Sequence record: OQ708376.1
From: Escherichia phage vB_EcoM_CRJP21
Strand: one strand, 5' to 3'
Length of the DNA stretch: 64,000 nucleotides
The stretch's first letter is position 1; every line of letters starts with the position of its first letter. The notes beneath the pieces were generated by a model. It had not been told where the DNA came from and searched no databases. It was given only the letters and a program-made list of their open reading frames with translations. This document shows positions 2,567 to 55,515 of the stretch, in pieces. The translations under genes were made by a program, and so were the position numbers.

Positions 2567-2597
2567 AAAAAGGAGCCACACGGCTCCTTTTTGTTTT
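2565..2597. terminator. Bidirectional rho-independent terminator
   Basis: A-run, stem GGAGCC (2572-2577) / GGCTCC (2582-2587), then T-run; sits between convergent genes. Confidence 0.7.
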
Positions 2598-3060: not shown

Positions 3061-3073
3061 AACAACACCTCCT

Positions 3074-5948: not shown

Positions 5949-5977
5949 GTAGACAAACCGTAAGAATGTGATATAAT
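5949..5977 (+). promoter_or_regulatory. Promoter: GTAGAC -35-like box, 17-bp spacer, TGaTATAAT extended -10
   Basis: TATAAT at 5972-5977 with TG at 5969-5970; -35-like hexamer at 5949-5954; about 40 nt upstream of the ClpA-like start. Confidence 0.45.
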
Positions 5978-6017
5978 GTTTATTAATTAGAGTGACGTGA
6001 ATCACATAGGAGAATAC

Positions 6018-11300: not shown

Positions 11301-14300
11301 GAACACTATAATCTGCGTAAAGCATATCATTGAGTTCAACTGTACTGTTTTCACGACCAATCGCTTTCCAATAAATTGAATCGCGTGATTGTGATTTAAT
11401 ATACAATGTCCAAATGTTTTCACTATCGGTAACTCTGATAATATCGCCAACTTGGTAGTTTTTAGTATTAGCATCTTCTAAGCTTGACTCTTGAGTATAA
11501 GTCGTGTTACTATCATATCCAACATCATACCAATCAGCATATGACCAGTACTGAGTCATGTCTAATGAGGTTCCTAGTGATTCAACATAATCAGATTGTT
11601 TAATCATTTTATGTTGTCCCTCACCTTTGTTTTCTAACGTTATAGTAACAACACTACCCGCGTTTGCTGGACTATTCATTAACTGAATATATCCATTTTC
11701 GTCGAAGTGAATAAAATAAACAGCACTAGAAGTTAATGGATTTGGTAGATATCCACTAGTACTTAAAATAACAGCGTCATTTTCTTTAAATTTATCACTT
11801 TCAACTGCAATAACTAATTCATTATTGTAAGACAACACACGGAAAGAAACTTCATTAGGGTTAACTTCAGTGGTTTTAACATTAAACACATCTTCCATAA
11901 CAACACTATTAGTGGTTATGTTTTGTGACCTATAATAATTATTAGCACTTTCTACAAAGTTTCTACGAGCTTCTATAACATTTTGGAACCAAGTTTTGTT
12001 TGATCCTAAACCGTTATCAACATCTGGATATAATAAATTAATCACAGAACCTGATTCAGTTGTTTCTTGACCAATTAGTGAGTTCCACATTGAATCCCAA
12101 ATTAGTGGGTTAAAGTTATAGCTGTCACCTTCTTTACATAGTTGATACTGGTCATGTTTAACAACTTCAGTACTATCCATGTAATAAGAAACAGTTAAAA
12201 TACTGGTATCATCATTCACTTTAAATTGCATATTACTAAGAATAAACGAGTTTTCATTTATTGGAGCGAACCAAGGAATGTTTAGCTGTGTTGGATCTTT
12301 AATAATACGAGCAATGTCAGTACATGATTTCGTTCTGGTATGTAGTGGTGGTACATAAATTGTATCACGTACCCAGAAATAGTATTTTGTTACATAACTA
12401 TCAGTTGAACTATCATATTCCAAAAATGTACTATAATTATCTTCAAGTGCAGTTCCACTTGGTAGATACATAGTATTATTTTTGTTTTTCTTAGCAACAT
12501 CTTTACAGTATTTGTCCCAGTTATATGGCTCAACTGGTGAACAAACCCACTCTAACACATCAATGGTACTATGTGGTAACAAACGGCCCCAGTTGTAACG
12601 TTTGTATTCATTGGTTGCATCAATATCAACATTACCGTCTGCGTCATAAATTGCACGAGTATAATCCAAATAAAATGCAGTGCTAGTGTTCCACCATACT
12701 TGACCAACTTTATCAGCACCCCAAGCCTGGATTAACTCTCCATTACTATTATACTGTGCAGGATCAACTGGTGAAGTATATGTTACGTTTTGCATAGCCG
12801 CACCTGGAATAACACCATTAATTGGGTCATAAACGTTTAGATATAGCTCAGTAATGTTAGTACGTTCATCATATGTCGTTGGACGATCAAATAAAGTACT
12901 TTGTGGTGCTTTAAAACTATATTTCTTGTCAATGTAAGCTTGACGATCATCAGTACTGGCAAAACGTGATACATAACGATACAAACGTGGACGTGTATCT
13001 GGATCAGTAAATTCAATATCAATAGAAGTGTCAAATGGAACTACCATAACTTTAGGATCAGAACCAGCAGTATAATATTGACTTTCTACTGTTAAAGTAT
13101 CTGGCATAAAGTTAGTTTCATCAACAAAATAATAATAATCACCATCTTCAAGTGGTACATTATCAGTTAAAGTTACTTTACAAAATTGTTCAGCATACAC
13201 ATCGGTATTTTCAATAGGTGTTATAGAAACCATTTGTACATTAGTATCAACCAATTCAAAAATGTTCCACAAACCATTACCGTCTTTAAACATCCACACA
13301 GATTCAGGATTTTCACCTTTACCATTAGTATAAGTTATGCGGTCATTATATGCAGTACTGAAATCTTTTGTTGTGTACGATACTTCATCCAATGTTACTG
13401 GACCAATATCTGGAAGTTGGATGTTTTCACTTCTTCCACTACGCATTGGGAATGAGAACTTACCATTTGGACGTGTAATCCAACGAGGATCTTTACCTTG
13501 CTCACCGAAGTATACAATATGATTACCATTACCATTTGAAGTTGCATTTACATCAAAAGAAACCATTTGAGGTTGTTGTTTAAATTGGTCATTGATTAGT
13601 TTAAATTGAAGGTTTTTCTTACCATCAATATTACCATATGTACCAATTTTAAATGCCCATTCTTGTAATGCTTTATATTCATCAGTGTCATATGATTTAG
13701 AAACACGAAGTACACGTTCTAAAACTTGGTTAGTACCTTTATCGTGAATGAATCCTTTATAGAAATCAACACGACTAACATCACTACTAATCATACGCTG
13801 TAGATAATCACGAGATTGATAACCAATCAAATGGTTTGACAACTCTTGTAATTGTACATCACTTACTGGAGTTTCACTATCATAATAATGTTGGAAATCC
13901 GACACTAATTTTTCAAATGATGGTAGTGTTCCAGCTTCCAAGATAATAAATCCAGGAGCTTGTAGGCGACCAGTCCATGAACCAGTAATATATCCATACA
14001 TTTTAATTAGTTCTTGAATAGAACCATATGTTGGCTGATAAATGTAATCACCAAAAATAGTTTTATCATCAAAAATAACAGCATGTTCATATGAACACAA
14101 ACTTAAACGAATCAATGCAATGCGTTTATTAGATTCTAAAGTTCTAACAGTGAAGATATTTCCAATACGAGAAGTTTCAATTTCATATTGGCGAATACCT
14201 TGGTTATTATCATCAAGTAATGACCATACACCACCATTATTTTGCGTAATAGATTGTACTGAACCAAAGTCTGCCCCAAATTTAGCGTTTGCAGCACTTG

Positions 14301-17300
14301 GGGTACAAGAAATAAATTCACCAGTTACTAGAGAATTCTGACTCCAGATCACGAAATCTTTAGCAATAGTGTTCCAATCTTGTTGAGCACCACTATCATT
14401 TACATCTTCAAAAATCCAACCATGTTCTTTAAGATATTCACCATATCCACAAATAAAAGTATAAACTTCTTGGTAACTATTGAAAACTTTACCATATTCA
14501 ATTGAAGCTTCAGACTTCCATTCATTATAATGAACAACATTACGGTTTTCCAATTTAAGAGTTACTTTTCTACCATTTTTTACTGGAAGTTTATATTTAA
14601 ATTTAGCACCAACTAGATCATATCCATCAATCTGATATGCACTACCATTCCAAGTAATTTTGATCGCACTCATTTGCTCATCACGGATATTATTAGAACG
14701 AACAAGACCAATGGTTTGGTTTTCTTGTGAAATAAGACCGAAAGATTTAGCATTGAATGTTAGCTGATCTGCTTTAGTAAATCCTCCAATTTTATGACCA
14801 ACATTTATATAAGAAGAACGAACTACATCCCCATACTTGGTGGTAATATTTTTATTTTGATACATCAAATGGTCACTTACAAACATTTGATAACCAATTG
14901 TTCTTGTGCTATTTTCACCATGAACTACTGTATTTTTATCAAAATTAATACGCTTACGTGTATCACCATAAAGGAATTGTGAACCATCAGTGAATACTTC
15001 TTTTAAGTTATCGTTGCGGGTATCCCAGAAATAGTTAGCAAATTGTGCTGGTTTAGCTTTATACAAAAGCATCATTTGGTCATATGCAAACAATGTAGTG
15101 TTCATGTATGTAAATTCCATGTCACCCATATCACCATATGTCCAAGGTTCTGCTCTATGATTTAAAGATCCAGACACTAAACCTAAAATTTCAGGTGCAA
15201 TATATTCAACCACACAAATATCAATACCAGAAGATGTTTTATTTCCAGTTTTTGTAATTTTGAATGGCTGTACACCAAATCTTTTATATTTGTCATATTG
15301 ACCACGACGATCACCAAATAAAATAGTTCCAGTACTGCTATCTCCAATAGTTCCGTCAATATCCCAAAGACCACTAGGAACTAAATCACCTTGCTCATTC
15401 ATAACAAGTGCTTCATATACATATACAACATCACTATCACGTTCACCAACTTGAACAGCCGTTGGTTCGTATTCTTGGTTCCACCAAGTTGGACGTTGTG
15501 TAAAGCCAAACATTTCCCACGGATGGGTAGCTGGGCGATATGTACCATATTGGTCAGTGTAAATGGCACGCCATGAACCACGTGCAGGAATTTCAGTACT
15601 TTGACCATTAACTACATAATAAGTGCCAGTATAGTTCCAAGTTCTCCAATTGTTAGGATCATAATCATGTGTACTATTACTGATACCATTAGTTGCGGTG
15701 AAGTTAATGTATCCACGTAGTAATAATGTTTGTTTCTCTTCAGCACTATATTCAGTTTTAGTGAAATATGGTGTAGGGAAAAGGTCATCACTATTCAATA
15801 CTGGTACGTAATCAACATCTTTGAATTTATTATCAATACTATTAAAAATTCTATTTTCTAATTCATATACAACATCATCCATTTTATCAACACCATTGAT
15901 AACACGGTATGCTTTGGAAATAATACCAGTATGACTGATGTTATAACAGCTTGGTTTACTACCAGCAGTGAGGAATGTCGCTTTTTCTGGTACATATGCT
16001 TGAAGAATACCTAAGAACTGTGGTGTTGGTGGTATAAATGCACGAATGAATCCAGAAGTACTTCCAACATTATCATAATAGAATGGGAATGAACTATCAC
16101 GTCCCATATTAATAGTAGTTAAAATTGCATCAACAATGTTTGCAGCACTATTTTGTAAAAAGTCTGATGGATTTTCATCATACATACGAAGCATTTGTGT
16201 ATTAAATTTATTAATGAATCTAAAATATTCAGATTGCATAAACATAGTTGCTTCAAACAAATCAATATCTTCATTTGCAGTATGTGCCATCAATGGAAGC
16301 ATAGATGCTTCATTTTGGATAATTTTAGTACCTACGCCATTATTAACCAATCCTTTAGCCAAACGTTCTTCATAGTCATTGAAATCATCAGAAGAACCAC
16401 GTGTAATGTTCTTTTGAATAATATCCTGAAAATGTAAAGTGTAGTCACCTTGGTTAATGTATATAATATTAGAATTATATGGGTTATTTTGTAGGTTGAT
16501 TGGAACTTCATATGCACCTAATTCTTTATTAGGAGTTACAGTACTGCTATAAGTTCTAATTTGAATAACAGAATCTTCATCCAATTCTACAGTACTATCT
16601 AGAGTGATGCTTTGTACTTGACCTTTTGAAACATTTTTGGTATATTTGGACACATCAACACCATCAACCACAACTTCAATAATATCAGAATCATTATCTA
16701 AAACTTTTTGTGCCAATTCGAATGTATGGTCATATTTTACAATCTGAACACCATCACCAGTAATTGGATGCCAATCTAGATAAGTTTCACGGTCAGCTTT
16801 ATAGTACTGATATGTTCTATCAACTTCAATAACATATGCATACATACCATCAACTGGTTCTTTAAAAACTTCCATATCATAAACAGTACTGAATACACGA
16901 TACATATCAGTACGTTGGACTTGTGGAGTTTGTTTTACAAATTGTTTAGAGTACTCTTCTGAACGAACCCAATCGGTTTGAAGATTCATTTCATTATTTT
17001 CATCAATAATGTTATAATAGTATAAACCATCAATTTCAACTTCTTTTCCAAGATGGTCATAGGTATAACGTTGGGATTGTAAAAAGTTTTCATAAATGTA
17101 ATAATTATAATCACCAAGTTCAATGTTATATCCATATACACTATCAGTTGCATAGTTGTAATTTATTTTAAAACCAAACAACTCTGAACCTTTAAAGTTA
17201 CTTGATGGATATGTAGTACTGTTGTCAAGTTTGATACCATTACGATCATAAAGTTGGAATTTAGGGAATACGTTAACACTAGTTTTTGATTGTGCACGAA

Positions 17301-18345
17301 CCCACAAAGATCCATTCCAGTACATAGAACTATTACCATACTCATTACCTTTAGTGATTAGAACAACATCACCATCTTGAGGTTCACCACTTGGGCGTGA
17401 TTCGGTTTCTTCTTCTGGATCTAGTGCTAAACCATAAACACGAGTACCATCTTGCATTTTTTTCACATATACATTATAAATTCTATTGTTTTCACCATTG
17501 TTACCAATACTGGTGAATAGAATACGCATTCCATCTTGCGGAATAATACCATCAATACGTATACCACTATTAATATCTTTTTGAACGATATCTTCAGGTT
17601 TAATAATATCAGAGAACAGATCAACAGTTCCACGGAATTTTGTACCGTAGTTAATTAGCTCAATATTTTTATTATATTCAATAATTGGTGCACGTGCACG
17701 AATAAAACGTGAATCTTGCATTAATTCTTCAGTTAATATTGAGCCATCTTCTAATGTTTCACCTAAAGTATACCAAAAGTTTTGTAGTGACCATGTATTA
17801 CCATTAAGTGCTCCACGTTCCATTACAATGTAATCAGGTGAAGTAATATTATAAGAGTTTTTAGTATCCCAAAGATATGAGCTAAAATTGTTCATTTTAT
17901 TTGGGTTAATAGCTGGAGTCCATGCATAAAACTTACCGTTGAACAAACGGCTTTCATTATCGGTTAGTGCTCCATAATGATTCATGTATCCAACTAGATC
18001 ATCATAAAATTGAATTGAACGAATTGTCGAATCATCATTTTTTGAGACGTAAGCAGTGGACAACTGATAAAGTTGACGTGCTACAGTACTTTCATGTAAG
18101 AAGATATTACCAGCAGCGGCAGGAGAACCCATATCACCAATATAGCCGTCAACTAATTCGTTTTCAGCCGGATTAAACCATTGTTGAATAACATCATCAC
18201 TGACTTTTTGAATATCTTCTAAGCCTTGCATCCACTCAGGCAATCTTTTAATAAAAAGCTTCTTCTGTACTGCTTCAGCCATCTGTGTAGGTTGAAACTT
18301 AAAATTATTAGTCATTTTTGGACTCCATATAATTCGTTCATTCAT
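8344..18345 (-). CDS. Giant virion structural protein (3333 aa), probably baseplate or tail-fibre associated
   Basis: Single uninterrupted 10-kb ORF immediately downstream of the gp6-like gene (the position of gp7 and later wedge/fibre genes in T4); Asn/Tyr/Gly/Thr-rich fibre-like composition. Confidence 0.65.
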   Translation of the reverse strand: MNERIIWSPKMTNNFKFQPTQMAEAVQKKLFIKRLPEWMQGLEDIQKVSDDVIQQWFNPAENELVDGYIGDMGSPAAAGNIFLHESTVARQLYQLSTAYVSKNDDSTIRSIQFYDDLVGYMNHYGALTDNESRLFNGKFYAWTPAINPNKMNNFSSYLWDTKNSYNITSPDYIVMERGALNGNTWSLQNFWYTLGETLEDGSILTEELMQDSRFIRARAPIIEYNKNIELINYGTKFRGTVDLFSDIIKPEDIVQKDINSGIRIDGIIPQDGMRILFTSIGNNGENNRIYNVYVKKMQDGTRVYGLALDPEEETESRPSGEPQDGDVVLITKGNEYGNSSMYWNGSLWVRAQSKTSVNVFPKFQLYDRNGIKLDNSTTYPSSNFKGSELFGFKINYNYATDSVYGYNIELGDYNYYIYENFLQSQRYTYDHLGKEVEIDGLYYYNIIDENNEMNLQTDWVRSEEYSKQFVKQTPQVQRTDMYRVFSTVYDMEVFKEPVDGMYAYVIEVDRTYQYYKADRETYLDWHPITGDGVQIVKYDHTFELAQKVLDNDSDIIEVVVDGVDVSKYTKNVSKGQVQSITLDSTVELDEDSVIQIRTYSSTVTPNKELGAYEVPINLQNNPYNSNIIYINQGDYTLHFQDIIQKNITRGSSDDFNDYEERLAKGLVNNGVGTKIIQNEASMLPLMAHTANEDIDLFEATMFMQSEYFRFINKFNTQMLRMYDENPSDFLQNSAANIVDAILTTINMGRDSSFPFYYDNVGSTSGFIRAFIPPTPQFLGILQAYVPEKATFLTAGSKPSCYNISHTGIISKAYRVINGVDKMDDVVYELENRIFNSIDNKFKDVDYVPVLNSDDLFPTPYFTKTEYSAEEKQTLLLRGYINFTATNGISNSTHDYDPNNWRTWNYTGTYYVVNGQSTEIPARGSWRAIYTDQYGTYRPATHPWEMFGFTQRPTWWNQEYEPTAVQVGERDSDVVYVYEALVMNEQGDLVPSGLWDIDGTIGDSSTGTILFGDRRGQYDKYKRFGVQPFKITKTGNKTSSGIDICVVEYIAPEILGLVSGSLNHRAEPWTYGDMGDMEFTYMNTTLFAYDQMMLLYKAKPAQFANYFWDTRNDNLKEVFTDGSQFLYGDTRKRINFDKNTVVHGENSTRTIGYQMFVSDHLMYQNKNITTKYGDVVRSSYINVGHKIGGFTKADQLTFNAKSFGLISQENQTIGLVRSNNIRDEQMSAIKITWNGSAYQIDGYDLVGAKFKYKLPVKNGRKVTLKLENRNVVHYNEWKSEASIEYGKVFNSYQEVYTFICGYGEYLKEHGWIFEDVNDSGAQQDWNTIAKDFVIWSQNSLVTGEFISCTPSAANAKFGADFGSVQSITQNNGGVWSLLDDNNQGIRQYEIETSRIGNIFTVRTLESNKRIALIRLSLCSYEHAVIFDDKTIFGDYIYQPTYGSIQELIKMYGYITGSWTGRLQAPGFIILEAGTLPSFEKLVSDFQHYYDSETPVSDVQLQELSNHLIGYQSRDYLQRMISSDVSRVDFYKGFIHDKGTNQVLERVLRVSKSYDTDEYKALQEWAFKIGTYGNIDGKKNLQFKLINDQFKQQPQMVSFDVNATSNGNGNHIVYFGEQGKDPRWITRPNGKFSFPMRSGRSENIQLPDIGPVTLDEVSYTTKDFSTAYNDRITYTNGKGENPESVWMFKDGNGLWNIFELVDTNVQMVSITPIENTDVYAEQFCKVTLTDNVPLEDGDYYYFVDETNFMPDTLTVESQYYTAGSDPKVMVVPFDTSIDIEFTDPDTRPRLYRYVSRFASTDDRQAYIDKKYSFKAPQSTLFDRPTTYDERTNITELYLNVYDPINGVIPGAAMQNVTYTSPVDPAQYNSNGELIQAWGADKVGQVWWNTSTAFYLDYTRAIYDADGNVDIDATNEYKRYNWGRLLPHSTIDVLEWVCSPVEPYNWDKYCKDVAKKNKNNTMYLPSGTALEDNYSTFLEYDSSTDSYVTKYYFWVRDTIYVPPLHTRTKSCTDIARIIKDPTQLNIPWFAPINENSFILSNMQFKVNDDTSILTVSYYMDSTEVVKHDQYQLCKEGDSYNFNPLIWDSMWNSLIGQETTESGSVINLLYPDVDNGLGSNKTWFQNVIEARRNFVESANNYYRSQNITTNSVVMEDVFNVKTTEVNPNEVSFRVLSYNNELVIAVESDKFKENDAVILSTSGYLPNPLTSSAVYFIHFDENGYIQLMNSPANAGSVVTITLENKGEGQHKMIKQSDYVESLGTSLDMTQYWSYADWYDVGYDSNTTYTQESSLEDANTKNYQVGDIIRVTDSENIWTLYIKSQSRDSIYWKAIGRENSTVELNDMLYADYSVHNDNGSLSNREINVRKALALLKNSFDLHQSEIVFDMVKYVHVEQSVVDWVFKTSYIYIVGLEQSLVQNYSNDNLINQIVEYFEEVKPYRTKIRSQIEQKTSDDDLIKGLCNDLDPNGYIFVDGSWIKTEKDIWDYEYAQFNEITQKWEQVGSLPSDFVTPNRRFQEIDIIMHYDNIQCKPNEDLASINELVSVNNKYQSNEKDAVSNYELQRYIYSFPEYSEETFDLLIAYQMQIYYPELDVTLGTAYGVNQWYKDHAEDLEATDEFTATLERVYKESTHNDMFTDLRQYVQYNTLANRLKLYKDISDEKIHDEVGCGFSGLTYNDNPSTRLPLGFSSSNDYNYGYFEISSELYQKYISLIKDKNPDASDYEVKVKLEVEYGVYVYRYDEVGGDTRFYTDAIHVLAGMRGLFDKDATDKYEKAEEILSKTPIDIYAITMIPRKYVYLNVNGVYQSIPDEQSIDDFMEDYFITNGEMVELAEINLDDLPLDQNNPMYSDYQYILDSITEAKYFNDMNAFDNLALESQTSSIKWEVKDDEVDPYIVDISDINPSGRDVGQIRFTVDGYGFDNVSLVQLRDNSRYQTEGMAIINPYKHTEAIVSIPSYAKIENDINKTTSKFDEKYFYRVRSINSLTEAEIVDNDLSDGDKVMIFTPDGEDFVRYQNHTWETILRVSNIKNNTTPILFTVRNTGKETIELIDESTGAVLRYDNITLAQQNEPVQPLALNIVRVRTFADPEFVKNGIKLYEQNRNYTIDVINYDVFYDTTLNGGKYNDGITPDDVDVWIISNEIFDVDGITIDNGYNLPITGAGVLSELARTKMTDSLEINVIEYDSSVIQPFRNNEGIWVYGFPMVDGMYIGVVGGTVTNITTISEENTTYVSQPKSISPYSIRNNVLSGSAANMNDIISIGYEKVEVRNANNLLRGVMYSAEHDFKLNTTYSFNGINLGNYDMLKRYTQNSYTIDLSVYTDSLQVSGNDIKNILLVK

Positions 18346-41408: not shown

Positions 41409-41416
41409 TATAAATA
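41409..41416 (+). promoter_or_regulatory. T4-type late promoter motif TATAAATA
   Basis: Exact TATAAATA about 45 nt upstream of the scaffold gene start. Confidence 0.45.
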
Positions 41417-41463
41417 TCTGTATGTTGAAGTACAGATATTTCAGTACTTAAAGGAGAGAACGA

Positions 41464-42579
41464 ATGTCTAAATTAGAAAAGCTTCTAAAAGAATCATCTC
41501 TTTCTGATGAGGCAAAACAGCTAATTCAGGAAGCATGGAATGAAGAAAAGAATACACTAGCCGCAGAGATGCGTGAAGAAATGAAAGGCCGTTATCAGCA
41601 AGATTTGGCTGAACTAACCGAAGGTTTGAACACGATGGTTACTCAAGTCATTGCTGAAGAAATGGGTGCTGTATATGAAGAGAAAAAACGTCTCGTTGAA
41701 GATCGTGTAACTCTACGTAAAACACTAAGCAATTTCTCTGCGTTTTCAAACTCTGTTTTGGCTGAAGAAGTTAAACAAATGCGTAAAGAACGTAAGCATC
41801 TTCATGAATGCATGGGTAAATTCGTTAATTTTTCTAACGGTATCCTAGCAGAAGAGCTAAAAGAATTCCACACTGAAAAACGCCAACTAGTAGAAACTCG
41901 CGTTAAACTACTTGCTGAAGGTTCACGTCAAATTGCTGAAGCTCGTAATAACTTCATCAAACGTACATCTGAAAGTGCTGCTAAATATATTGCAGAAACC
42001 ACTCAGAAGAATCTATATGCGTTGAAACAAGATCTAGTGGAAGCAAAACAAAATATGTTTGGTCGTAAAATCTTTGAAGCATTTGCTCAAGAGTTTAATG
42101 TCAAACAATTTAATGAAAACTCATTGCTACGTTCCCTAACTGAATCAATTAAATCTAAAGAAGATGAAATTGCTCAAGTTAAGCAAGAACTACATGAAAC
42201 TGCTAATGCCGTTAAAGCTGCTAAAACCAAACTACGTATTATGGAAGATGCACAAGCACGTAATGCGATTATGTCTGAACTAGTAAAACCACTAACTGCA
42301 CAGCAAAAACAAATTATGGAATCCCTTCTAGCTACTTCACCTACTGAAAAGCTTAAAGAAGATTTCAGCAAGTACCATAAGTCAGTACTTAACGGTACTA
42401 AAGTAAATGAATCTGCTACCACTCGTCAAGCAGTTCAGTCTTCCGCTAAGAAAACTCTTGCAGAAGGTAAAGTAATCACTGGCAACCGTCAGGCTATTGT
42501 TGAAAGCGAAGAAATGACCGCTGACGATATGGCATTCCTAAAAGAACTCGATGTTCTTTCAGGTATCAATAAAAAATAA
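41464..42579 (+). CDS. Prohead scaffolding protein, gp22-like (coiled-coil)
   Basis: Charged, helical, repeat-rich sequence (repeated EEVKQMRKERKHL / EELKEFHTEKRQL blocks) between protease and major capsid genes. Confidence 0.6.
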   Translation: MSKLEKLLKESSLSDEAKQLIQEAWNEEKNTLAAEMREEMKGRYQQDLAELTEGLNTMVTQVIAEEMGAVYEEKKRLVEDRVTLRKTLSNFSAFSNSVLAEEVKQMRKERKHLHECMGKFVNFSNGILAEELKEFHTEKRQLVETRVKLLAEGSRQIAEARNNFIKRTSESAAKYIAETTQKNLYALKQDLVEAKQNMFGRKIFEAFAQEFNVKQFNENSLLRSLTESIKSKEDEIAQVKQELHETANAVKAAKTKLRIMEDAQARNAIMSELVKPLTAQQKQIMESLLATSPTEKLKEDFSKYHKSVLNGTKVNESATTRQAVQSSAKKTLAEGKVITGNRQAIVESEEMTADDMAFLKELDVLSGINKK

Positions 42580-42617
42580 ACATTTTAAAGCATTTTAATA
42601 ATCAAATTTTTCAGTTC

Positions 42618-42625
42618 TATAAATA
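42618..42625 (+). promoter_or_regulatory. T4-type late promoter motif TATAAATA
   Basis: Exact TATAAATA about 45 nt upstream of the major capsid gene; followed by a leader shared with the acidic-protein gene. Confidence 0.5.
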
Positions 42626-42670
42626 ATATCATACTGAAAAACGAATATAACATCTTTAAGGAGATATATA

Positions 42671-43846
42671 ATGTCACAACTACTAAATGAATCCAAATGG
42701 GTAGCAGTAAAAGAGAAACTAGTTGAAGGTCTACAGGGTACTCGTAAGTCTGTAATGGAAACTGTTCTTGATAACCATCGTAAAGTTATGCTAACTGAAT
42801 CCGCAACTTCTGGTGCAACTACCGCTGGTAACATCGCTACTCTAAACAAAGTGATTCTACCAATTATGCGTCGTGTAATGCCAACCGTTATTGCTAACGA
42901 AATCATCGGTGTTCAACCAATGACTGGTCCAGTTGGTCAGATCCACACCCTACGTGTGCAATATGCTGATAACGCACCTGGTGTTATCGCTGGTGAAGAA
43001 ATGCTTTCTCCATACAAAATCGCTAAATCCTACTCTGGTGATCTAAATGCGGATAATAGCAACCCACAAGCTGCTCCTACTAGCCAACTAGAAGGTACTA
43101 TGGGTCGTCGCGTTAACATCCGTATTCTACGTGAAACTGTTGAAGCGAAATCTCGTCGTCTATCTGCACGTTGGACTGTTGAATCTGCACAAGATGCTCA
43201 ATCCCAACATGGTGTTGACGTTGAAGCAGAACTAATGGCTGCAATCGCTCAAGAAGTTACCGTAGAAATCGACCAAGAGCTACTAAGCCGTCTACGTGCA
43301 CTACCTGGTGCTGCTGCTGTAACTTATGACCAATCTAAAGTTACTGGTGTTGCAACCTTCGTTGGTGATGAGCACGCTGCTCTAGCAACTCTAATTAACC
43401 GTCAAGCAAACGAAGTTGCTCGTCGTACTAAGCGTGGTGCTGCAAACTGGGCTGTTGTTTCCCCAACTGCACTAACCATTCTACAATCTGCTACTACTTC
43501 TAGCTTTGCACGTACCACTGAAGGTACTTTCGAAGCACCAACTAACGTTAAGTTTGTAGGTACTCTAAACAGCACTATGCGTATTTTTGTTGATACTTAT
43601 GCAAGTGATGCAGAAGATATTCTAATTGGTTATAAAGGTAATGCAGAAACTGATGCTGGTGTGTTCTATTGCCCATACATCCCACTAATGGCTTCCGGTA
43701 CTGTAATGGACCCTAACACTGGGGAATTGGTCACAACTTTCTTAACCAGGTATGGTTATGTTCAGTTGACCGATAGCACCAGTTCACTAGGTAACGCTGC
43801 GGACTACTACAGCAAAATCGCTATCAAAAACGTTACTTTCATGTAA
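42671..43846 (+). CDS. gp23: Major capsid protein, gp23-like
   Basis: Last gene of the portal-protease-scaffold module; codon usage like highly expressed genes; strong terminator after the stop; remembered T4 gp23 similarity is approximate. Confidence 0.75.
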   Translation: MSQLLNESKWVAVKEKLVEGLQGTRKSVMETVLDNHRKVMLTESATSGATTAGNIATLNKVILPIMRRVMPTVIANEIIGVQPMTGPVGQIHTLRVQYADNAPGVIAGEEMLSPYKIAKSYSGDLNADNSNPQAAPTSQLEGTMGRRVNIRILRETVEAKSRRLSARWTVESAQDAQSQHGVDVEAELMAAIAQEVTVEIDQELLSRLRALPGAAAVTYDQSKVTGVATFVGDEHAALATLINRQANEVARRTKRGAANWAVVSPTALTILQSATTSSFARTTEGTFEAPTNVKFVGTLNSTMRIFVDTYASDAEDILIGYKGNAETDAGVFYCPYIPLMASGTVMDPNTGELVTTFLTRYGYVQLTDSTSSLGNAADYYSKIAIKNVTFM

Positions 43847-43887
43847 TTGTAATAGATTTAAAAGATTTAATCAAAAAAAATAAAAAC

Positions 43888-43919
43888 AATAGGGACTCTT
43901 CGGAGTCCCTTTTCTTTTT
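43888..43919 (+). terminator. Rho-independent terminator
   Basis: Stem GGGACTC / GAGTCCC with TTCG loop, followed by a T-run. Confidence 0.8.
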
Positions 43920-43931
43920 ATTAAAAAACCC

Positions 43932-43960
43932 TTGACACAATGTTCTGGAATGTATATAAT
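43932..43960 (+). promoter_or_regulatory. Consensus sigma70-type promoter TTGACA-17-TATAAT
   Basis: TTGACA at 43932-43937, exactly 17-bp spacer, TATAAT at 43955-43960; about 30 nt upstream of the 43993 ORF. Confidence 0.65.
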
Positions 43961-43992
43961 ACGCACATACACGAAAATAAAGAGACAAAATT

Positions 43993-45090
43993 ATGCCAAA
44001 CGTAAGTATCACCAAAGAAGAGTTTATCAGCAAAATGACTGCTAAGTATGGTGAATTTGATTTCAGTACTTTAGTATTCAAAGCAAGTAAGACAACAGTG
44101 AAATGTAACAAGTGTGGAAAAGAAAACACCAAACCTGCACTTCGTCACATTGCATGTACATGTGCATCATGTTATTCAAACATGTCACAACGTTCAAACA
44201 ACGACACATTCATCAGTACTGTAGAAACTAAATTTGGAAAAGATAAATTCAAATTTGATAAACTAAATTACACTAATGCTATATCAAAAGTAACAATTTT
44301 CTGCACAGATGAAGATCACAATGATTACTTTGAAATTACACCCAATAAATTTCTTTCTGGTAAAGGATGCCCCGTATGTAATAAAAATGAAGCATACAGT
44401 ACTGAAGAGTTCAAAGAAAAAGTAAAAGATAATTATGGTGATTTATTGGATTTAACTAACACGGTGTATGTAAATCAAAAAACTAAAGTAACTGTGTATT
44501 GTAACGCAGGTAATCATGAATGGACAGTTGATCCAAAAACTTTACTTGTTGGTAAGACTGGATGTGGTACATGCTCCGGTAAAGGCGGTCGAAGTACTGA
44601 ACGTTTCATTGAACTTGTGTCGCCTATCCATAACCATAAGTATGATTATAGCTTGGTGGATTACAAGACTAGTGATGAACATGTGGATATTATTTGTCCT
44701 GAACATGGTGTCTTTAAACAAATACCCAAATCTCATATGGCAGGAAGAGGATGTCCATCATGTGGTGAGTATGGTTATCAACCATCAAAGCCTGGATATT
44801 TCTATGTACAAAAACTATCTAATAACTCAAAAGTCGTTTACAAATACGGAATTACCGGAGACATGAAGAGACGAATTCATGAACAAAGTCGCAATTCTGA
44901 GTTCGAGCATGAAGTACTGGTAGAACGTTACTTTGAGGATGGTAATAAACCATTATTATTGGAAAAGTTTATCAAGCAATACATTGAAAGTGGTGTTGTA
45001 AGTACTGAAGAGTTACCGTCAGGATTTACTGAAACATTTGATGCTAAGTATCTTGAAAGTGTTTTAGAAATTGTAAATACTTTTAAGTAA
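43993..45090 (+). CDS. Multi-zinc-ribbon protein with C-terminal T5orf172 / GIY-YIG-like domain
   Basis: Repeated CxxC pairs (CNKCG, CTCASC, CPVCN, GCGTCSG, CPSCG), then GYFYV...YKYGIT...R...E...SGFTETF resembling the T5orf172 fold. Confidence 0.55.
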   Translation: MPNVSITKEEFISKMTAKYGEFDFSTLVFKASKTTVKCNKCGKENTKPALRHIACTCASCYSNMSQRSNNDTFISTVETKFGKDKFKFDKLNYTNAISKVTIFCTDEDHNDYFEITPNKFLSGKGCPVCNKNEAYSTEEFKEKVKDNYGDLLDLTNTVYVNQKTKVTVYCNAGNHEWTVDPKTLLVGKTGCGTCSGKGGRSTERFIELVSPIHNHKYDYSLVDYKTSDEHVDIICPEHGVFKQIPKSHMAGRGCPSCGEYGYQPSKPGYFYVQKLSNNSKVVYKYGITGDMKRRIHEQSRNSEFEHEVLVERYFEDGNKPLLLEKFIKQYIESGVVSTEELPSGFTETFDAKYLESVLEIVNTFK

Positions 45091-45104
45091 ACAATCTAAA
45101 GGAG

Positions 45105-45464
45105 TTGACACGGATGTTAACTGTATACAAATTTAACAAAGAAGAGTACTTAAAGAGTCAGTACTCAAATATAGAAATAAATGTTCCTTATGGTACGTTA
45201 GTTGGATATGATGAAGCCACTGAAACATTGTATTATAATGATGATAGATTGGATTATAGTTTAGATTCTTTTATAGAAGATATACTAAACACACATACTG
45301 AAGATATGTTATATGAAGAATACATAGATCATTATAGGGAACGTATGTCACAATTACACTCAGACGCTCCAGTACTAAACATTACACAAGAACCTTCTGA
45401 ATTTCAGCCCCATAATCCTTTTCAACGTTTAATAGATATTGGTTTGAAATTCACTATTAGTTGA
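45105..45464 (+). CDS. Hypothetical protein (119 aa)
   Basis: ORF with SD-like GGAG upstream; Tyr/Glu/Asp-rich; no motif. Confidence 0.4.
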   Translation: MTRMLTVYKFNKEEYLKSQYSNIEINVPYGTLVGYDEATETLYYNDDRLDYSLDSFIEDILNTHTEDMLYEEYIDHYRERMSQLHSDAPVLNITQEPSEFQPHNPFQRLIDIGLKFTIS

Positions 45465-45503
45465 TAGATAAATATCTCCATATTAATGATGGAGATTGAA
45501 TCT

Positions 45504-45812
45504 ATGTCACAGATATGTTATGTTATAATAAATTCTGCATGGCCTGAGTATGTTAAAATTGGTTTTACTTCAAAATCAGAAATGACAGAACGTCTAAGAA
45601 CGTATCAGACTGCTACACCATTTCGTGACTTTGAAGTATATCATGAAGTTCATTTTGATGATGCACGTTTGGCTGAAAAAGAAATACATAAAAGGCTTAA
45701 GCAGATGAATGCAACTAGACAACCCAATACCGAGTGGTTTAAAATGTCTAAAAAGATAGCAGCCAACATTATTGATTCCGTATGGGATGATATGGATAAC
45801 GACTTGCTATAG
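45504..45812 (+). CDS. T5orf172 domain protein (GIY-YIG superfamily)
   Basis: CYVIIN...YVKIGFT...R...ELH...TEWF matches the T5orf172 signature; ATG at 45504 has a GGAG RBS (track start 45486). Confidence 0.7.
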   Translation: MSQICYVIINSAWPEYVKIGFTSKSEMTERLRTYQTATPFRDFEVYHEVHFDDARLAEKEIHKRLKQMNATRQPNTEWFKMSKKIAANIIDSVWDDMDNDLL

Positions 45813-45852
45813 GAATAAATATAGTATATATTAATCATAAAGGGATTTATAC

Positions 45853-47463
45853 ATGAGCATAAGTTTTAATAACCCATTGGATACAATGACCAGTACTGGT
45901 GCTAATGGATCTTTAGAACTAATAGTGCTTGGTGGTACACCAACTAACCCAAGACCTATTCGTTTTAACTCGTCATCAGTTATCATACCAGTACAAACTT
46001 TACCAACTGGTGAACAAGGTGCAATGGTCTTTGATAGAAACGAGTTAGTTTTGAAGTATCATAACGGTACTAGTTGGATTGCAGTATACGATACTGATAC
46101 CATTTTAGAACCAATTAGAATTTCACTTGATGAAGTAAATAGAAAACTAAATTTAAAAGTAGAAAGTGTAACTTATAGTAGTAGTACTGTTCCTAGTGCA
46201 AGTATTAGTGGAACAAACTTAAACATTGTATTCCCTACTGCTTCTAGTGGTGGTTCTGGTCCAACTGGTCTTTACACTTCACTTAAACCTGGTGCTATTA
46301 CACAATATTCATTGACTTCTGGTCAATCTGTTGCTAGTATACGTGAACAAATGTCAGGACAATCGAATGGACAAAGTGGGAGAAACGGTTCACAAGGTGC
46401 TCCGTGGAAAACGTCTGACGGTTGGTGTTTTGCTGATGGTATGTGGTGGCAATGGGAGGGGGAAAATGGTACAATTACCAAACAAGTACCAAACCTTAAC
46501 CAAAACGCGTACTTAAAAGGGATATCCACATCAGGTGTAACTAAAACTGATAGTGTTATTGGTAGTAGCGGTAATATTAGCGGCACAGTATTAAGTGTTG
46601 CCCAATTACCATCACACTCATTTAGTTTTAGTGGGACCACAGGGGCTGCTGGTCGTCATGGTCATAGTCAAGCACTAAAAGGTATGGACCGTAGTGGTCT
46701 AAATGCGTTAACTTCAAGTAATGATAACGGTATACCAACTGTAATCAATAACATTAACGAAGCACCAGACCACATTCACTCATTTAGTGGAAACACTAAC
46801 ACACTTGGTGGAAACCAACCACACTATCATGGTATTAGTAACATTGATGTGGAACACTTTAACGTTGCATATCTATATAACATTGCTGAATCTAACGTCG
46901 CATTGAGTGAAAAAGTTGCAAACACTCGTTATGTACTAAAAACTGGTGATACAATGACTGGTTCATTGACTATTGCAAACAGTGCGTCAATTAAGTCAAA
47001 TGATACATCATTAGTTCTATATTTCCGTAACGCAAGCGGTGGTGAGCGTGCGGCAGTGTATCATAACTCTTCAAATAATACATTGAGATTACGTTCCGGT
47101 GGAGCAGAAGTTACTGTAAACTCTTCTGGTACGTTAGCTGCTCCATCATTAACTGTTTCTAACAACTCAGCTACTGTTGGTGGTAAAAATATTGTTCGTT
47201 CAATTAACGGTACTGCTGCTGATGCTAGTGGCAACGTTACTTTGCAAATTAGTACTAATAACGTACAAAGTATTCGTTTGAGTGCACGTATTGAAACAAG
47301 TAAAATACCTGATTCTTCATGGACATATACACCAGAAGGTGCATTTATGGATGGCGTATGGATTTCTGTTAATGGTAGTTCAGGCACTCACTTAGAACGA
47401 ATTAGTTATCGCTATGTTCAAATGCAAATAAATGGTAACTGGGAAACAGTACGTCAACAATAA
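45853..47463 (+). CDS. Tail fibre protein with HxH metal-binding motifs
   Basis: Gly/Ser/Thr/Asn-rich fibre-like sequence with HGH, HIH and HYH motifs like the T4 gp37/gp12 tip; followed by a Tfa-type chaperone gene. Confidence 0.6.
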   Translation: MSISFNNPLDTMTSTGANGSLELIVLGGTPTNPRPIRFNSSSVIIPVQTLPTGEQGAMVFDRNELVLKYHNGTSWIAVYDTDTILEPIRISLDEVNRKLNLKVESVTYSSSTVPSASISGTNLNIVFPTASSGGSGPTGLYTSLKPGAITQYSLTSGQSVASIREQMSGQSNGQSGRNGSQGAPWKTSDGWCFADGMWWQWEGENGTITKQVPNLNQNAYLKGISTSGVTKTDSVIGSSGNISGTVLSVAQLPSHSFSFSGTTGAAGRHGHSQALKGMDRSGLNALTSSNDNGIPTVINNINEAPDHIHSFSGNTNTLGGNQPHYHGISNIDVEHFNVAYLYNIAESNVALSEKVANTRYVLKTGDTMTGSLTIANSASIKSNDTSLVLYFRNASGGERAAVYHNSSNNTLRLRSGGAEVTVNSSGTLAAPSLTVSNNSATVGGKNIVRSINGTAADASGNVTLQISTNNVQSIRLSARIETSKIPDSSWTYTPEGAFMDGVWISVNGSSGTHLERISYRYVQMQINGNWETVRQQ

Positions 47464-47473
47464 GGAATGTGTA

Positions 47474-47989
47474 ATGCAACTAACAAATTTTAAGATGTAT
47501 GAAAAAGAAGGTGGTAATCCTAATTCTTTGTATATGATGTCCGATGAAGGTATGGATTGGTATGAATCTCGTGAATTGTTTGACATTAATAAAGCAAAAT
47601 TTATGTATGATACTAATGGTTTAATTGTTTCAGCATCATATAACATTTATGATCTAGTACCTTTAGGTTTTAGTGTTTCTGAAATTGAATATGATGGTGA
47701 TATTAACAAACTTTATGGTATGGTTTACGATGGAAATACTATTCATGACTATATTGAAACTAAAGAAGAAAAAATTGAACGCCTAAAAAATGAATTATCT
47801 AATTTGAAATACATTGCAATTCAAGAACTTGGACACTTAAAAACTGCTATGGATCTTGAGTTAGCAACTGATGAAGAAGCTGTATTGTTTGTAAAATTGA
47901 AAGATTATGTAACGCAATTGAATTCAATCAAACCAGCAGACATGATCAAGAAAACATTTTCATTTCCAGTTAAACCGGAAAAAAAATGA
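47474..47989 (+). CDS. Tail fibre assembly chaperone (Tfa-like)
   Basis: C-terminal DLELATDEEAVLFVKLKDYVTQLNSIKP resembles lambda Tfa [27 protein letters not shown]; AAGGA RBS before ATG at 47474 (track start 47432 overlaps the fibre gene). Confidence 0.65.
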   Translation: MQLTNFKMYEKEGGNPNSLYMMSDEGMDWYESRELFDINKAKFMYDTNGLIVSASYNIYDLVPLGFSVSEIEYDGDINKLYGMVYDGNTIHDYIETKEEKIERLKNELSNLKYIAIQELGHLKTAMDLELATDEEAVLFVKLKDYVTQLNSIKPADMIKKTFSFPVKPEKK

Positions 47990-48017
47990 GACAACACGTA
48001 AAGACGTGATACAATTA

Positions 48018-48055
48018 AGTCATCTCACCGATTGTGGTGAGGTGACATTTTTTTG
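48018..48055 (+). terminator. Rho-independent terminator
   Basis: Stem TCATCTCACC / GGTGAGGTGA (one mismatch), loop GATTGT, then a 7-T run. Confidence 0.6.
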
Positions 48056-48079
48056 AAAACACACATGGAGAAATACAAA

Positions 48080-48382
48080 ATGGCTAAATCTAAAAAAGAA
48101 GTTAAAGTTGAAATTCGTGATCTAAACGATGAACAACGTAAACGTCTCGGCGATGCACTTAACAACATTGTTGTACAACTAACTTTCATTGATGATACCA
48201 AAGCATCCTTATCTGATTTTGTTTCTAGTGTTTCTGATGAACTTGGTATCGATGCATCTGATATCAAACAAGCTGCACAACGTATGTACAAAGGTGATTA
48301 CTTTGACAAACAAAATAAACTCGATAATATCGAAACTATTCTTAGTGTTACTAATAATCTTCCACAAGCAGATGATTACTAA
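48080..48382 (+). CDS. Hypothetical small protein
   Basis: ORF with GGAG RBS before ATG at 48080 (track start 48053 overlaps the terminator); no motif. Confidence 0.4.
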   Translation: MAKSKKEVKVEIRDLNDEQRKRLGDALNNIVVQLTFIDDTKASLSDFVSSVSDELGIDASDIKQAAQRMYKGDYFDKQNKLDNIETILSVTNNLPQADDY

Positions 48383-48403
48383 TTAGTACTAAAATATATT
48401 AAA

Positions 48404-48431
48404 TAGCCTCCAATGACGGAGGCTTTCTTTT
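48404..48431 (+). terminator. Rho-independent terminator
   Basis: Stem GCCTCC / GGAGGC, loop AATGAC, followed by TTTCTTTTT. Confidence 0.7.
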
Positions 48432-48461
48432 TAACTTAATAAACGTAAGGGAATACAAACG

Positions 48462-51400
48462 ATGTATATCGATGCTTATATGGAACGTAAACGTACTGGT
48501 GATATTCTTCATGTAGTTGAACGTAAGAATGGTAAACGTATTCTACGCGAATTAGAACCAGTATATGAATATTATGTTGAATCCCCACAAGGAACACATA
48601 AAACTGTTTATGGTACAATGGCTAAACATTTTGAGTTTCAAACTCAAGCTCAAATGAATAAAAGTGTAGAGAAACACAAAAGTGAAGGTCTACGTATTTT
48701 TGAAAGTGATTGTAACATTACATTTAAAACATTAGCCAAAGAATATATGGGAAAAGGCTCACCCGATTTGAACATCGTGTTCTTCGATATCGAGACTGAT
48801 TTCCATAAGAAATTTGGTTATGCTCCACCATCAGACCCGTTTAACCGAGTAACCGCTATTTCTCTATATCAATCATGGACTGGAAAGGATTATGTACTTA
48901 CTTTACCACCTGCTGATATGGAAATTTATGAAGCACAAGATATTGTTCGCCAACTAAATGAAGAAACAAACGATCCTAACAGTACTGTAATTTTATATAC
49001 AGACGAAAAGGAAATGTTTATGGAATTCTTTAGTTTAATTGATGATTCTGATGTTATTTCAGGATGGAATAGTGAATTCTTTGATATTCCATATATGATC
49101 AATCGAACTAAAAAAATCTTCAATGAAGCAACAACTGCTCGTTGGTGTTTATGGAATAAAAAACCAAATTCACGTGAAGCAGACAACTTTGGTAAAACTG
49201 TTCAAACATATGATCTGGTAGGTCGCGTCCATCTTGATTATTTGGCTTTGTATAAGAAACATGCTGGTCAAGTTGAACAATCTTATAAACTAGATTATAT
49301 TGCTGAAAAAGTAACTAAAGAAAATAAAGTATCATATGAAGGTTCATTGGATAAACTTTACAGAGAGGATTACATTACTTTCTTGCGTTATTCTAAACAG
49401 GATAGTATTCTTCTTAAAAAGATTGATGCTAAATGTGACTATATCAACCTACACAATCGACTTGCACACAAAGAATGTGTACTTATCAGCACAACAATGG
49501 GTTCAGTAGCACTAATCGACACTGCTATTATCAACTTAGCACATACTCGTGGTGAAGTTGTTTTTAACAAAGCACCTAAAGATGATCTTGAGTTTGATCC
49601 AGAAATGGAATATTATGGTGAAGATGGTGAAGATGAAGATGAGAAAATTAGTGCAAAAGCAGCAGGTGCATGGGTACAAGATCCAGTACTAGGACTTGTA
49701 AGTGACCTTGGGTGTACTGACTTTAACTCTCTTTACCCTACAGTTCTACGCACTTTGGGTATGAGTACTGAATGTATTCTTGGTCAATTACGTCAAGATT
49801 ACACCGATGCGTATCTTGCAGCTAAAATCCAAGAACAGAAGAACAAATCTAAATCTAAATCATTTGAACCAGATTGGACTGCGGCATGGCATGGTTTATT
49901 TGCTGCTGTTGAATTTACAATGGTTCATGAAAAGTCAGAAGAAACATTGATTGTTGATTTAGAAGATGGGAGTTCTTTTAAAGCAACGGGCAAAGAGCTA
50001 TATGATATTATTTTTGCAGAAGATAGTACTATTGTACTTAGTGCAAACGGAACACTTTTTGATAAGTCTAAGTCTGGTGTAATTCCTGACATTCTAACTC
50101 AATGGTATTCTGAACGTAAAGCACAGCAAAAAATGGTCATTGACTACAAACATATGTATACTGATGGTTGGGAGTTTAATGGCTATGAAAAAGTCGAACC
50201 ACTACTATCAAACTATACCCCTGGTACAATGTTTAGAACTAATATTCATGATAATGATCCTGTATACTTACTTCGTAAAGAAATTGGTAAAGGACAATGG
50301 GATGAAGTTGCTAAGTTGATTGTAGAAAATGGTTTAGTACTAAAAGATGGTCGTATTTTCTGTCCTAAAGAAGAAAAAGATTACTTCAAACAACGTAGTG
50401 CTTTCTGGAAACAGAACCAACAGATTCGTAAGATTCTTCTAAACAGTCTATATGGTGCACTATTGAACAAAGGTTCTCGTTTCTTTGACAAACGTTTAGG
50501 TCAATCCGTAACATTAACTGGACGTTCTATGACCAAACATATGGCAAGTCGTATCAATGAGATTACTACTGGTGTATATAATCACCAAGGTGGTTCAGTA
50601 ATTTATGGTGATACTGACTCAGTTTACTTTAGTGTAACGCATTATCTGAAAGAACAAGGTATTCCATATAATCTATCTAAAGAAGAGATTGTTGATATGT
50701 ATATTAAAATTGGTGAAGAAGTTGGTGAATCTTTCCCATCATTTATGCATGAGATGTTCAACACTGGTATTGAAAAAGGTAAGATTGTTGGTGCAGACCT
50801 TGAGATGGTTGGTTCACGTGGCCTATTCTTGAAGAAAAAACGTTATGCAATTCTGAAGTACTGGGAAGATGGGTTCCGTAAAGATATTGATGGTAAACCA
50901 GGTGAAATCAAAGCGATGGGTCTTGAAATTAAACGCTCAGACACGCCAAAATACATCCAGAACTTCCTAGAAGAGACTCTAATCGCATTACTGGTAGGTG
51001 AGAGTGAACAGCAGCTAAAACAGCGTGTACGTGAGTTTAAGGACGTATTTAAGGATATGCCTGTACATGAAAAAGGTTCACCAAAAACTGTAAAAAACTA
51101 CACTAATTTAGAGGCTGAATATCAGCTAACTGGTAAGTGTAAAGTTGGTCACGTTCTTGCTGGTATCCAATGGAACCGTCTACGTGAAGTTTATGATGAT
51201 AAATCTGTTCCAGAAGTAACAGATGGAACAAAAGTAATTGTCTGTAACTTAAAAGATAATCCTATGGGAATTAAAGCTGTTGGATATCCAATTGACTGTG
51301 TTGAGTATCTACCAGAATGGTTCTTGGAACTACCATTTGATACTGAAAAAATGGAAGAGATTGTTCTAACTAAAAAATTAGAGAATATTTTTGGTATTTT

Positions 51401-52750: not shown

Positions 52751-52814
52751 TATAAATAACGGGGAACACTATGTTCCCCAAATTAGTTTGATTTAAAAAG
52801 TAAAGGAATACAAA

Positions 52815-55393: not shown

Positions 55394-55515
55394 GAAAATC
55401 TCCTTGTCAAATTTTGTGCAGGTATATCCTGCTTAAAGTTATTTATCAAAAAATATCACTAGCATTTAAATTTACTGAGATATTTAATGAATTTCTATGA
55501 TATTATTTATCAAAT

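Follow-up and report, generated by a model that had tools for sequence, protein, structure and literature searches.

We analyzed a 64,000-nucleotide (nt) stretch of Escherichia phage vB_EcoM_CRJP21 (OQ708376.1; this whole stretch is hereafter called the window) around positions 43932–45812, where a promoter and three open reading frames (ORFs) lie between the major capsid gene and a fibre-like gene; all features described are on the plus strand unless noted otherwise. This segment probably contains two unrelated things: an inserted gene of the homing-endonuclease type, ORF1 (43993–45090, 365 amino acids (aa)), with its own promoter, and a pair of backbone genes, ORF2 (45114–45464, 116 aa) and ORF3 (45504–45812, 102 aa), the second of which would be gated to late infection. 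A first-pass annotation had instead read the promoter and all three genes as one mobile or selfish cassette interrupting the structural region, possibly homing-endonuclease-like or a host-takeover module. The mobile, homing-endonuclease-like part of that proposal agrees with the variable presence, mosaic flanks, and domains of ORF1 with its promoter; it does not extend to ORF2 and ORF3, and no evidence for a host-takeover module was obtained.

The division rests on a comparison of 26 related loci, including those of GAP32 (Mimasvirus), Serratia BF (Eneladusvirus), Salmonella SE_PL, and IMG/VR jumbo contigs. The major capsid gene (42671–43846; Pfam Gp23, E=1e-89) is followed by an intrinsic terminator (43891–43910), already noticed in the first reading, that consists of an 8-bp G+C stem, a 4-nt loop, and then TTTTCTTTTT. 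This terminator is kept in all relatives, and occupied and empty genomes diverge directly past its T-run, which forms the left boundary of a variable slot. In PBECO4, ORF1 and its promoter are missing, and about 47 nt separate the terminator from the ORF2 ATG. A probe for this empty junction was unbroken in 8 records from 7 phages (PBECO4, four Salmonella SD phages, fEgEco12, and CMSTMSU). About 28 further Asteriusvirus records interrupted it, all at two identical positions, just past the terminator T-run and at the ORF2 ATG. Among the 26 loci, the slot was empty (116–231 nt) in 15, held an ORF1-like gene in 8, held another nuclease in 1, and held a 77-aa piece resembling the ORF1 C-terminus in 2, both from GAP32. 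ORF1 was missing from most other genera.

ORF2 and ORF3, by contrast with what a three-gene cassette would imply, keep their order and their place between capsid and fibre genes at essentially all 26 loci, so the insertion comprises only ORF1, its promoter, and a 23-nt spacer. From these alignments, we place the insertion at 43911–45113, as a unit made up of ORF1, the promoter and ribosome-binding site that serve it, and a new ribosome-binding site that replaces that of ORF2. The view that the whole block from promoter to ORF3 is one mobile cassette draws on the shared strand of the three genes, on the lack of a predicted terminator between them, and on the presence of T5orf172 domains in both ORF1 and ORF3. 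However, the shared order of ORF2 and ORF3 extends to empty-slot genomes and to other genera, ORF3 is 63–93% identical across the clade, ORF2 is homologous across genera, and similarity breaks at the ORF2 ATG and not past ORF3. A single cassette is thus scarcely credible.

The spacer (45091–45113), which forms the right end of occupied alleles and carries the ORF2 Shine-Dalgarno sequence AAGGAG, does not differ between the window, 121Q, Sharanji, and SHEFM2K, despite the different endonuclease of SHEFM2K. The ORF2 leader of empty-slot PBECO4 differs from it. The ORF1 leader (43958–43992) is about 79% similar to the PBECO4 ORF2 leader (3330–3365 of its locus), and the −10 box TATAAT of the ORF1 promoter aligns with CTAAATA of PBECO4. 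The insertion may have taken over the original leader and start codon of ORF2 while bringing a new Shine-Dalgarno sequence for that gene.

The slot is filled by different genes in closely related phages. The window, 121Q, and EcMJ carry a 365-aa protein of the ORF1 type, and A4 carries one of 368 aa. In Sharanji and G17, the occupant has 305 aa; its N-terminal half is about 50% similar to that of the window, and its C-terminal half is nearly identical. SHEFM2K has a 332-aa T5orf172 protein with about 30–34% identity, and variants elsewhere range from 303 to 383 aa. UE-S1 has a 552-aa ORF (1839–3497 of its locus) with DUF7487 and a weak REase_MTES_1575 match; therefore, a nuclease gene of a different family fills the same slot. 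The 77-aa ORF of GAP32 (5288–5521 of its locus) is 40% identical to ORF1 residues 313–364, and appears to be what is left of a decayed ORF1-like endonuclease gene at this position.

ORF1 consists of an N-terminal zinc-finger array and a C-terminal nuclease-type domain. The first-pass annotation had counted five zinc-ribbon modules; the five CxxC motifs are indeed present, but Cys/His spacing groups them in four modules of about 63 aa (aa 8–62, 70–130, 136–195, and 201–258; 44014–44766). Module 1 has two CxxC motifs, and the others follow the pattern C-x4-H...CxxC or C-x2-H...CxxC. In an AlphaFold2 (AF2) model, a helix, a beta-hairpin, and a zinc knuckle recur four times with a predicted local distance difference test (pLDDT) score of about 85, and the Cys residues of the repeats are invariant in 40 homologues. 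The array is predicted to bind DNA. Pfam DUF4379 matched ORF1 above its cut-off (26.4 versus 24.5 bits), and DUF723 is a precomputed assignment for essentially all listed ORF1 homologues.

The GIY-YIG/T5orf172-like domain that had been proposed behind the zinc repeats (aa 266–363; 44788–45081) was borne out by family membership and fold. The C-terminus matched Pfam T5orf172 weakly (E=0.008), whereas the whole of ORF1 matched phrog_681, annotated as 'endonuclease', with E=9e-77. Candidate catalytic Arg and Glu residues are invariant among homologues, with E347 as the putative catalytic Glu. No match to Pfam GIY-YIG (PF01541) was found in ORF1, which falls only in the T5orf172/MUG113 branch. Alignment of the ORF1 C-terminus, or of its family profile, to the ORF3 profile by hhalign gave a weak match of 36–38 columns, and therefore the domain link between the two proteins rests on Pfam, phrog_681, and their shared fold. 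Sequence searches of the PDB returned no significant match for ORF1 or ORF3, and NCBIfam gave nothing useful. The family is large: 1838 database proteins belong to it, and tblastn located it at 1675 places in 960 phage records, often in several copies per genome. In the window itself, tblastn found no paralogues of ORF1, ORF2, or ORF3. Some records already annotate ORF1 as 'endonuclease', and ICP1 members of the family are annotated as putative homing endonucleases.

These features correspond to a class of T5orf172 homing endonucleases (PHROG 681) described in ICP1 and other phages, in which a nuclease domain is combined with repeated zinc-finger DNA-binding modules of the CapR, DUF723, or DUF4379 type (Barth, Dunham & Seed 2023, PMC10448857). 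Genes of this class are variably present among relatives, have decayed copies and shuffled domains, and have capsid genes in 31% of their neighbourhoods (PMC10448857). ORF1 fits every sequence-level criterion of the class. Its nuclease domain lies at one terminus and its zinc-finger modules at the other; it is present in some close relatives and missing from others, with decayed copies and domain shuffling between alleles; and it is located beside an essential gene, that for the capsid, at a boundary of genetic exchange. Like the genes of Barth et al., it is free-standing, because Rfam detected no intron or other RNA family over 42000–48600. ORF1 thus belongs to an already described class, and current concepts are unchanged. 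It differs from the described genes in its host lineage, the Rak2-like/Asteriusvirus jumbo phages, and in that its allele brings a perfect sigma-70 promoter together with a replacement ribosome-binding site for the downstream gene.

Two narrower assignments were rejected. ORF1 is not a canonical GIY-YIG homing endonuclease of the I-TevI/Seg type, with an N-terminal PF01541 domain and C-terminal DNA-binding part, because its domain order is reversed and PF01541 does not match. It shares with T4 Seg proteins and I-TevI the GIY-YIG fold, the modular design of nuclease and DNA-binding parts, free-standing intergenic insertion close to essential genes, and co-conversion of flanks. Its nuclease domain, however, is C-terminal, and its DNA-binding part is a zinc-finger array in place of NUMOD, a helix-turn-helix, or a single zinc finger. 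Unlike many T4 seg and mob genes, which are cassettes lacking a promoter, ORF1 has a promoter of its own. Neither is ORF1 a CapR-like domesticated repressor devoid of a nuclease domain, because a complete C-terminal T5orf172 domain with the conserved Arg and Glu is retained.

A broader form of domestication has to be weighed, in which ORF1 has ceased to be a homing element, or never was one, and serves the phage as a sequence-specific DNA binder or nuclease, possibly as a regulator of the capsid operon like CapR of PLE or as an anti-satellite or anti-phage weapon like Odn of ICP1. The same domain families have been co-opted in both ways (PMC10448857 and works cited there): PLE CapR shares the CapR-type zinc-finger module with ORF1, and Odn has the T5orf172 nuclease domain in common with it. 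For DNA binding, Odn relies on a RepA_N domain, whereas ORF1 keeps zinc fingers and nuclease domain together. The position of ORF1 next to the capsid gene, its intact reading frame, and its strong promoter with hexamers under visible selection would suit such a role. Against it, the gene is dispensable, being absent from 7 close relatives; unrelated nucleases replace it in the same slot; and it has decayed to a remnant in GAP32. We consider domestication of ORF1 unlikely, and favor a homing-endonuclease-type insertion.

The sequences flanking the slot are mosaic. Binned at 100 nt, the window shows essentially no differences from 121Q, Sharanji, and PBECO4 between 40600 and about 43500 or at about 46700–50000, and the differences cluster at 43600–46200. 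Most of the divergence lies at 43600–45800, and identity is about 100% over 3 kb to its left and right. Comparison of the capsid gene with those of PBECO4 and SHEFM2K revealed no differences in nt 1–900 and 31 in nt 901–1176; these last 276 nt (43571–43846) adjoin the insertion. All 31 changes are synonymous, and they sit in patches common to different relatives. ORF1 itself is a patchwork of 121Q-like segments, Sharanji-like segments, and one unique segment. When we searched for a target site among the flank polymorphisms separating phages with ORF1 from those without it, the patches were not cleanly sorted by occupant.

This pattern also bears on the proposal that the slot is a hypervariable 'moron' site past a terminator, where ordinary recombination shuffles accessory genes with no nuclease-driven conversion. 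The slot does begin directly after the terminator, its occupants come from different families, and mosaicism alone is no proof of cleavage. Yet every occupant with a detectable domain is of the nuclease type (T5orf172 or, in UE-S1, REase-like), and the divergence is sharply limited to a few hundred bases beside the slot, with about 100% identity between the genomes elsewhere. Such flank-confined divergence is the pattern reported around phage homing endonuclease genes. Shuffling of accessory genes alone therefore appears very unlikely as an account of the slot, and we retain homing as the preferred origin of the ORF1 insertion.

The ORF1 promoter, TTGACA-17-TATAAT (43932–43960), matches the sigma-70 consensus at 12/12 positions and lies, as first described, directly behind the capsid terminator. 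It had been called the only full host consensus; this is correct for a 17-nt spacer, and another 12/12 match, whose spacer has 18 nt, is located at 5718–5747 inside a minus-strand gene (4414–5919). With spacers of 16–18 nt allowed, the window has 2 perfect matches versus 0.13 expected from the shuffled window. Despite diverged 17-nt spacers, all 12 hexamer positions are retained in the window, EcMJ, and A4, and the hexamers therefore look selected; in 121Q and Sharanji, they match at 11/12. The best match in empty slots, and in the SHEFM2K and UE-S1 occupants, is at most 9/12. These comparisons indicate that the sigma-70 promoter travels with ORF1-type alleles. RpoD-like promoters are regarded as early in Rak2-like phages (PMC5259590), and the ORF1 promoter is predicted to be an early promoter used by host RNA polymerase.

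The second perfect match, at 5718–5747, is about 270 nt upstream of a gene for a ClpB-like AAA+ ATPase (5997, or ATG 6019, to 8306). A further promoter-like sequence, TAGACA-16-TATAAT preceded by TG, is found at 5951–5978, just upstream of the same gene.

In the course of events that we propose for ORF1, host RNA polymerase would transcribe the gene early. In a mixed infection, its zinc-finger array would bind at or near the empty slot of a relative, where ORF1 would cut, and recombinational repair from the ORF1-carrying genome would copy the gene together with flanking stretches. Homing of this kind would explain the patchy presence of ORF1, the varied endonucleases in the slot, the decayed remnant, and the synonymous patchwork at the adjacent end of the capsid gene.

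The two genes downstream of the insertion behave differently. The small ORF and the stand-alone T5orf172 protein of the first reading are both present, as ORF2 and ORF3. ORF2, whose likeliest start is ATG 45114, encodes an acidic protein belonging to phrog_15724; it has no Pfam match or recognisable domain, and its homologues are confined to the clade. It is present at every locus in which the region is covered, and its positional homologues in GAP32, BF, and SE_PL show about 30% identity between genera. ORF3 matched Pfam T5orf172 (PF10544) with 49.5 bits against a cut-off of 20 (E=7e-13, profile positions 2–98 of 101), and contains the Y...KIG.T...R...E..H...EWF motifs. Its AF2 model (pLDDT 89) has the same beta-beta-alpha-beta-alpha topology as the ORF1 C-terminus. 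As judged from their conservation, ORF2 and ORF3 are backbone genes of Rak2-like jumbo phages and lie outside the mobile unit.

The invariant residues of ORF3 are Y6, K18, G20, T22, R30, Y34, E58, E60, E77, W78, and N88, and the conservation of Arg, Glu, and Asn suggests that ORF3 is an active nuclease, with E77 as the putative catalytic Glu. A role as a substitute for T4 endonuclease VII was weakened because the related phage CBB has its own endonuclease VII homologue. In PADLOC, ORF3 matched PDC-S57 and PD-Lambda-1 at the domain level only, with no sign of a defence system. The likeliest start of ORF3 is ATG 45504, because the N-terminus M-S-Q-I-C-Y is kept in all genera and GGAG lies 9 nt upstream.

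Upstream of ORF3, a T4-type late promoter box, GATAAATA (45467–45474), directly adjoins an inverted repeat. ATAAATA is strongly associated with gene starts in the window: 17/21 copies lie no more than 70 nt ahead of the start of a gene on their own strand (binomial p=2e-23), and TATAAATA precedes gene starts in 7/7 cases, those of the capsid, scaffold, protease, and fibre genes among them. For other words of equal composition, at most about 21% of the copies are upstream of starts, except for the overlapping TAAATAA. ATAAATA is also depleted, with 21 copies in the window versus 30–58 for most same-composition words. An ATAAATA motif and a gp55-like sigma factor have been reported for CBB and GAP32, and together with these gene-start statistics this identifies the motif as the T4-type late promoter of the clade. 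A separate late promoter seems to precede each structural gene.

The inverted repeat over the ribosome-binding site of ORF3, noticed at the outset, is present at 45474–45496 as ATCTCCAT/ATGGAGAT with a 7-nt loop; the start of ORF3 is to be moved from 45486 to 45504. Its 3′ arm contains the ORF3 Shine-Dalgarno sequence GGAG (45491–45494). Among 16 distinct ortholog variants of this upstream region, TAAATA is invariant, and ATAAATA occurs in 13/16. In 16/16, the hairpin starts at the first or second base after TAAATA, and its 3′ arm is the Shine-Dalgarno sequence. The arms vary by lineage (TCTCC/GGAGA, CCTCC/GGAGG, CTCCC/GGGGG, CCCC/GGGG, and ACCC/GGGU), with double-sided compensatory changes at two stem positions (pair 1, U-A/C-G/A-U; pair 3, U-A/C-G). 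The hairpin of the window has a folding free energy of −8.0 kcal/mol (z=−3), and in long modelled transcripts the region up to the AUG is closed by another, outer stem, ATAGAT/ATCTAT. These comparisons indicate that the repeat, which is not an insertion scar, forms a conserved RNA hairpin linked to a late promoter.

In modelled transcripts starting at or before 45475, the probability that the ORF3 GGAG is unpaired is 0.00. No plus-strand terminator is predicted between 43910 and 47214, and RNA initiated at the ORF1 promoter should therefore extend through ORF3, whose Shine-Dalgarno sequence would be masked in it. Upstream transcripts in general, those from the ORF1 promoter included, would fold the hairpin and pair this sequence. 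The late promoter abutting the hairpin would instead start transcripts inside the 5′ arm, leaving the Shine-Dalgarno sequence mostly free; judging from T4 spacing, a late start for ORF3 would fall at about 45480. Translation of ORF3 is thus predicted to be restricted to late infection.

The repeat could instead act for ORF2, as a terminator or as an RNA-stability or processing element, rather than as a translation gate. It lies 10 nt past the ORF2 stop codon, a terminator scan called it terminator-like on the minus strand, and hairpins after the late boxes at 41409, 52751, and 55446 cover no Shine-Dalgarno sequence. However, no T-run follows the repeat on the plus strand, and there are no minus-strand genes here. 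The compensatory changes and the invariant placement of the two arms in the 16 variants, one being the Shine-Dalgarno sequence and the other falling right after TAAATA, also speak for regulation of ORF3, and the arrangement matches a documented T4 design. An element acting for ORF2 is therefore quite unlikely. The other hairpins directly after late boxes, (T/G)ATAAATA, are at 41409–41445, at 52751–52785 (plus strand), and at 55446 (minus strand), upstream of the scaffold gene and two other genes; they leave the Shine-Dalgarno sequence uncovered, unlike that of ORF3.

The combination of hairpin and late promoter is documented for I-TevI, I-TevII, I-TevIII, and segB of T4, for mobE of Aeh1, and for soc and e of T4 (PMC2988022). 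As in those systems, the ORF3 Shine-Dalgarno sequence lies in the 3′ arm on long transcripts, a late promoter of the TATAAATA type appears to be placed such that late transcripts would not include the 5′ arm, and the regulated gene is of the nuclease type. Unlike the T4 and Aeh1 genes, ORF3 is a conserved backbone gene, not a mobile one, and it resides in a distant relative of T4. The control by hairpin and late promoter known from T4 thus appears to reach the distantly related Rak2-like jumbo phages.

Several observations weigh against the combination of a homing-endonuclease-type ORF1 and a late-gated ORF3 that we favor. ORF1 scores under the Pfam cut-offs for T5orf172, CapR, and DUF723, and N88, the invariant Asn of ORF3, is matched by no invariant residue of ORF1. 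Homing has been experimentally shown for no T5orf172 gene, and nuclease activity dependent on the conserved Glu was shown for the class in one case, Odn (PMC10448857). The SHEFM2K and UE-S1 occupants have no good sigma-70 promoter, so such a promoter is not a universal part of these insertions. The mosaic flanks could come from ordinary recombination at a variable slot. With regard to ORF3, its GGAG is about 40% unpaired on average in modelled transcripts starting at 45478–45482, so that freeing is only partial. Empty-slot genomes have no strong early promoter upstream of ORF3, and the hairpin would act there only on transcripts coming from ORF2. At this locus, the proposed nuclease activity and its target site, homing, the transcription starts, and the timing of expression are inferences, as homing is for the genes of Barth et al.

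On balance, we still regard an ORF1 insertion next to a backbone pair as the probable arrangement. A more far-reaching scenario, which we put forward tentatively and consider unlikely as a whole, concerns ORF3. It would be a domesticated, catalytically competent GIY-YIG nuclease with no DNA-binding domain, needed late in infection, possibly for DNA processing before packaging or for destroying competitor or host DNA, with a late-only switch because early expression would be toxic. The slot would be a hotspot for homing endonucleases, ORF3 a fixed relic of one invasion, and the ORF1 promoter would rewire ORF2 to early expression in carriers.

T5orf172 genes are abundant in phages and their homing has never been demonstrated, so the Asteriusvirus phages could serve as a test system for homing: near-identical E. 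coli jumbo phages have an empty slot (PBECO4 and fEgEco12), an ORF1-type gene (121Q and the phage studied here), or other endonucleases (Sharanji, SHEFM2K, and UE-S1). For annotation, the results imply that ORF2 and ORF3 are to be kept out of the mobile unit and that ORF3 is to start at 45504.

By sequence match, the region 42600–48000 is of the Asteriusvirus type (121Q/PBECO4-like E. coli jumbo phages). Its identity is 96% to 121Q over the full length, 98.6% to G17, Sharanji, and slurp01 over 88%, and 97% to PBECO4 over 78%. The local gene order is prohead protease, scaffold, Gp23-family major capsid protein, the segment analyzed here, the fibre-like gene (45853–47463; phrog_13229 match), tail-fibre assembly protein, a small protein, and family-B DNA polymerase. 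The fibre-like gene is preceded by a late promoter box, (A)ATAAATA (45815–45821). In phAPEC6, gp220–224, the homologues of an ORF1-like endonuclease, ORF2, ORF3, the fibre-like protein, and the assembly protein, are missing from the virion proteins detected by mass spectrometry (PMC7247149). By position, the phAPEC6 homologue of the tail-fibre-annotated gene at 45853–47463 should be gp221.

Within the 3′ end of ORF1, GTAAATA (45062–45068) lies 45 nt ahead of the ORF2 start codon, and both the 365-aa and the 305-aa alleles retain it. This sequence might act as a weak late promoter of ORF2 located inside the endonuclease gene, as with T4 seg and mob genes. Elsewhere in the window, an ORF of 3333 aa is encoded on the minus strand at 8344–18345.

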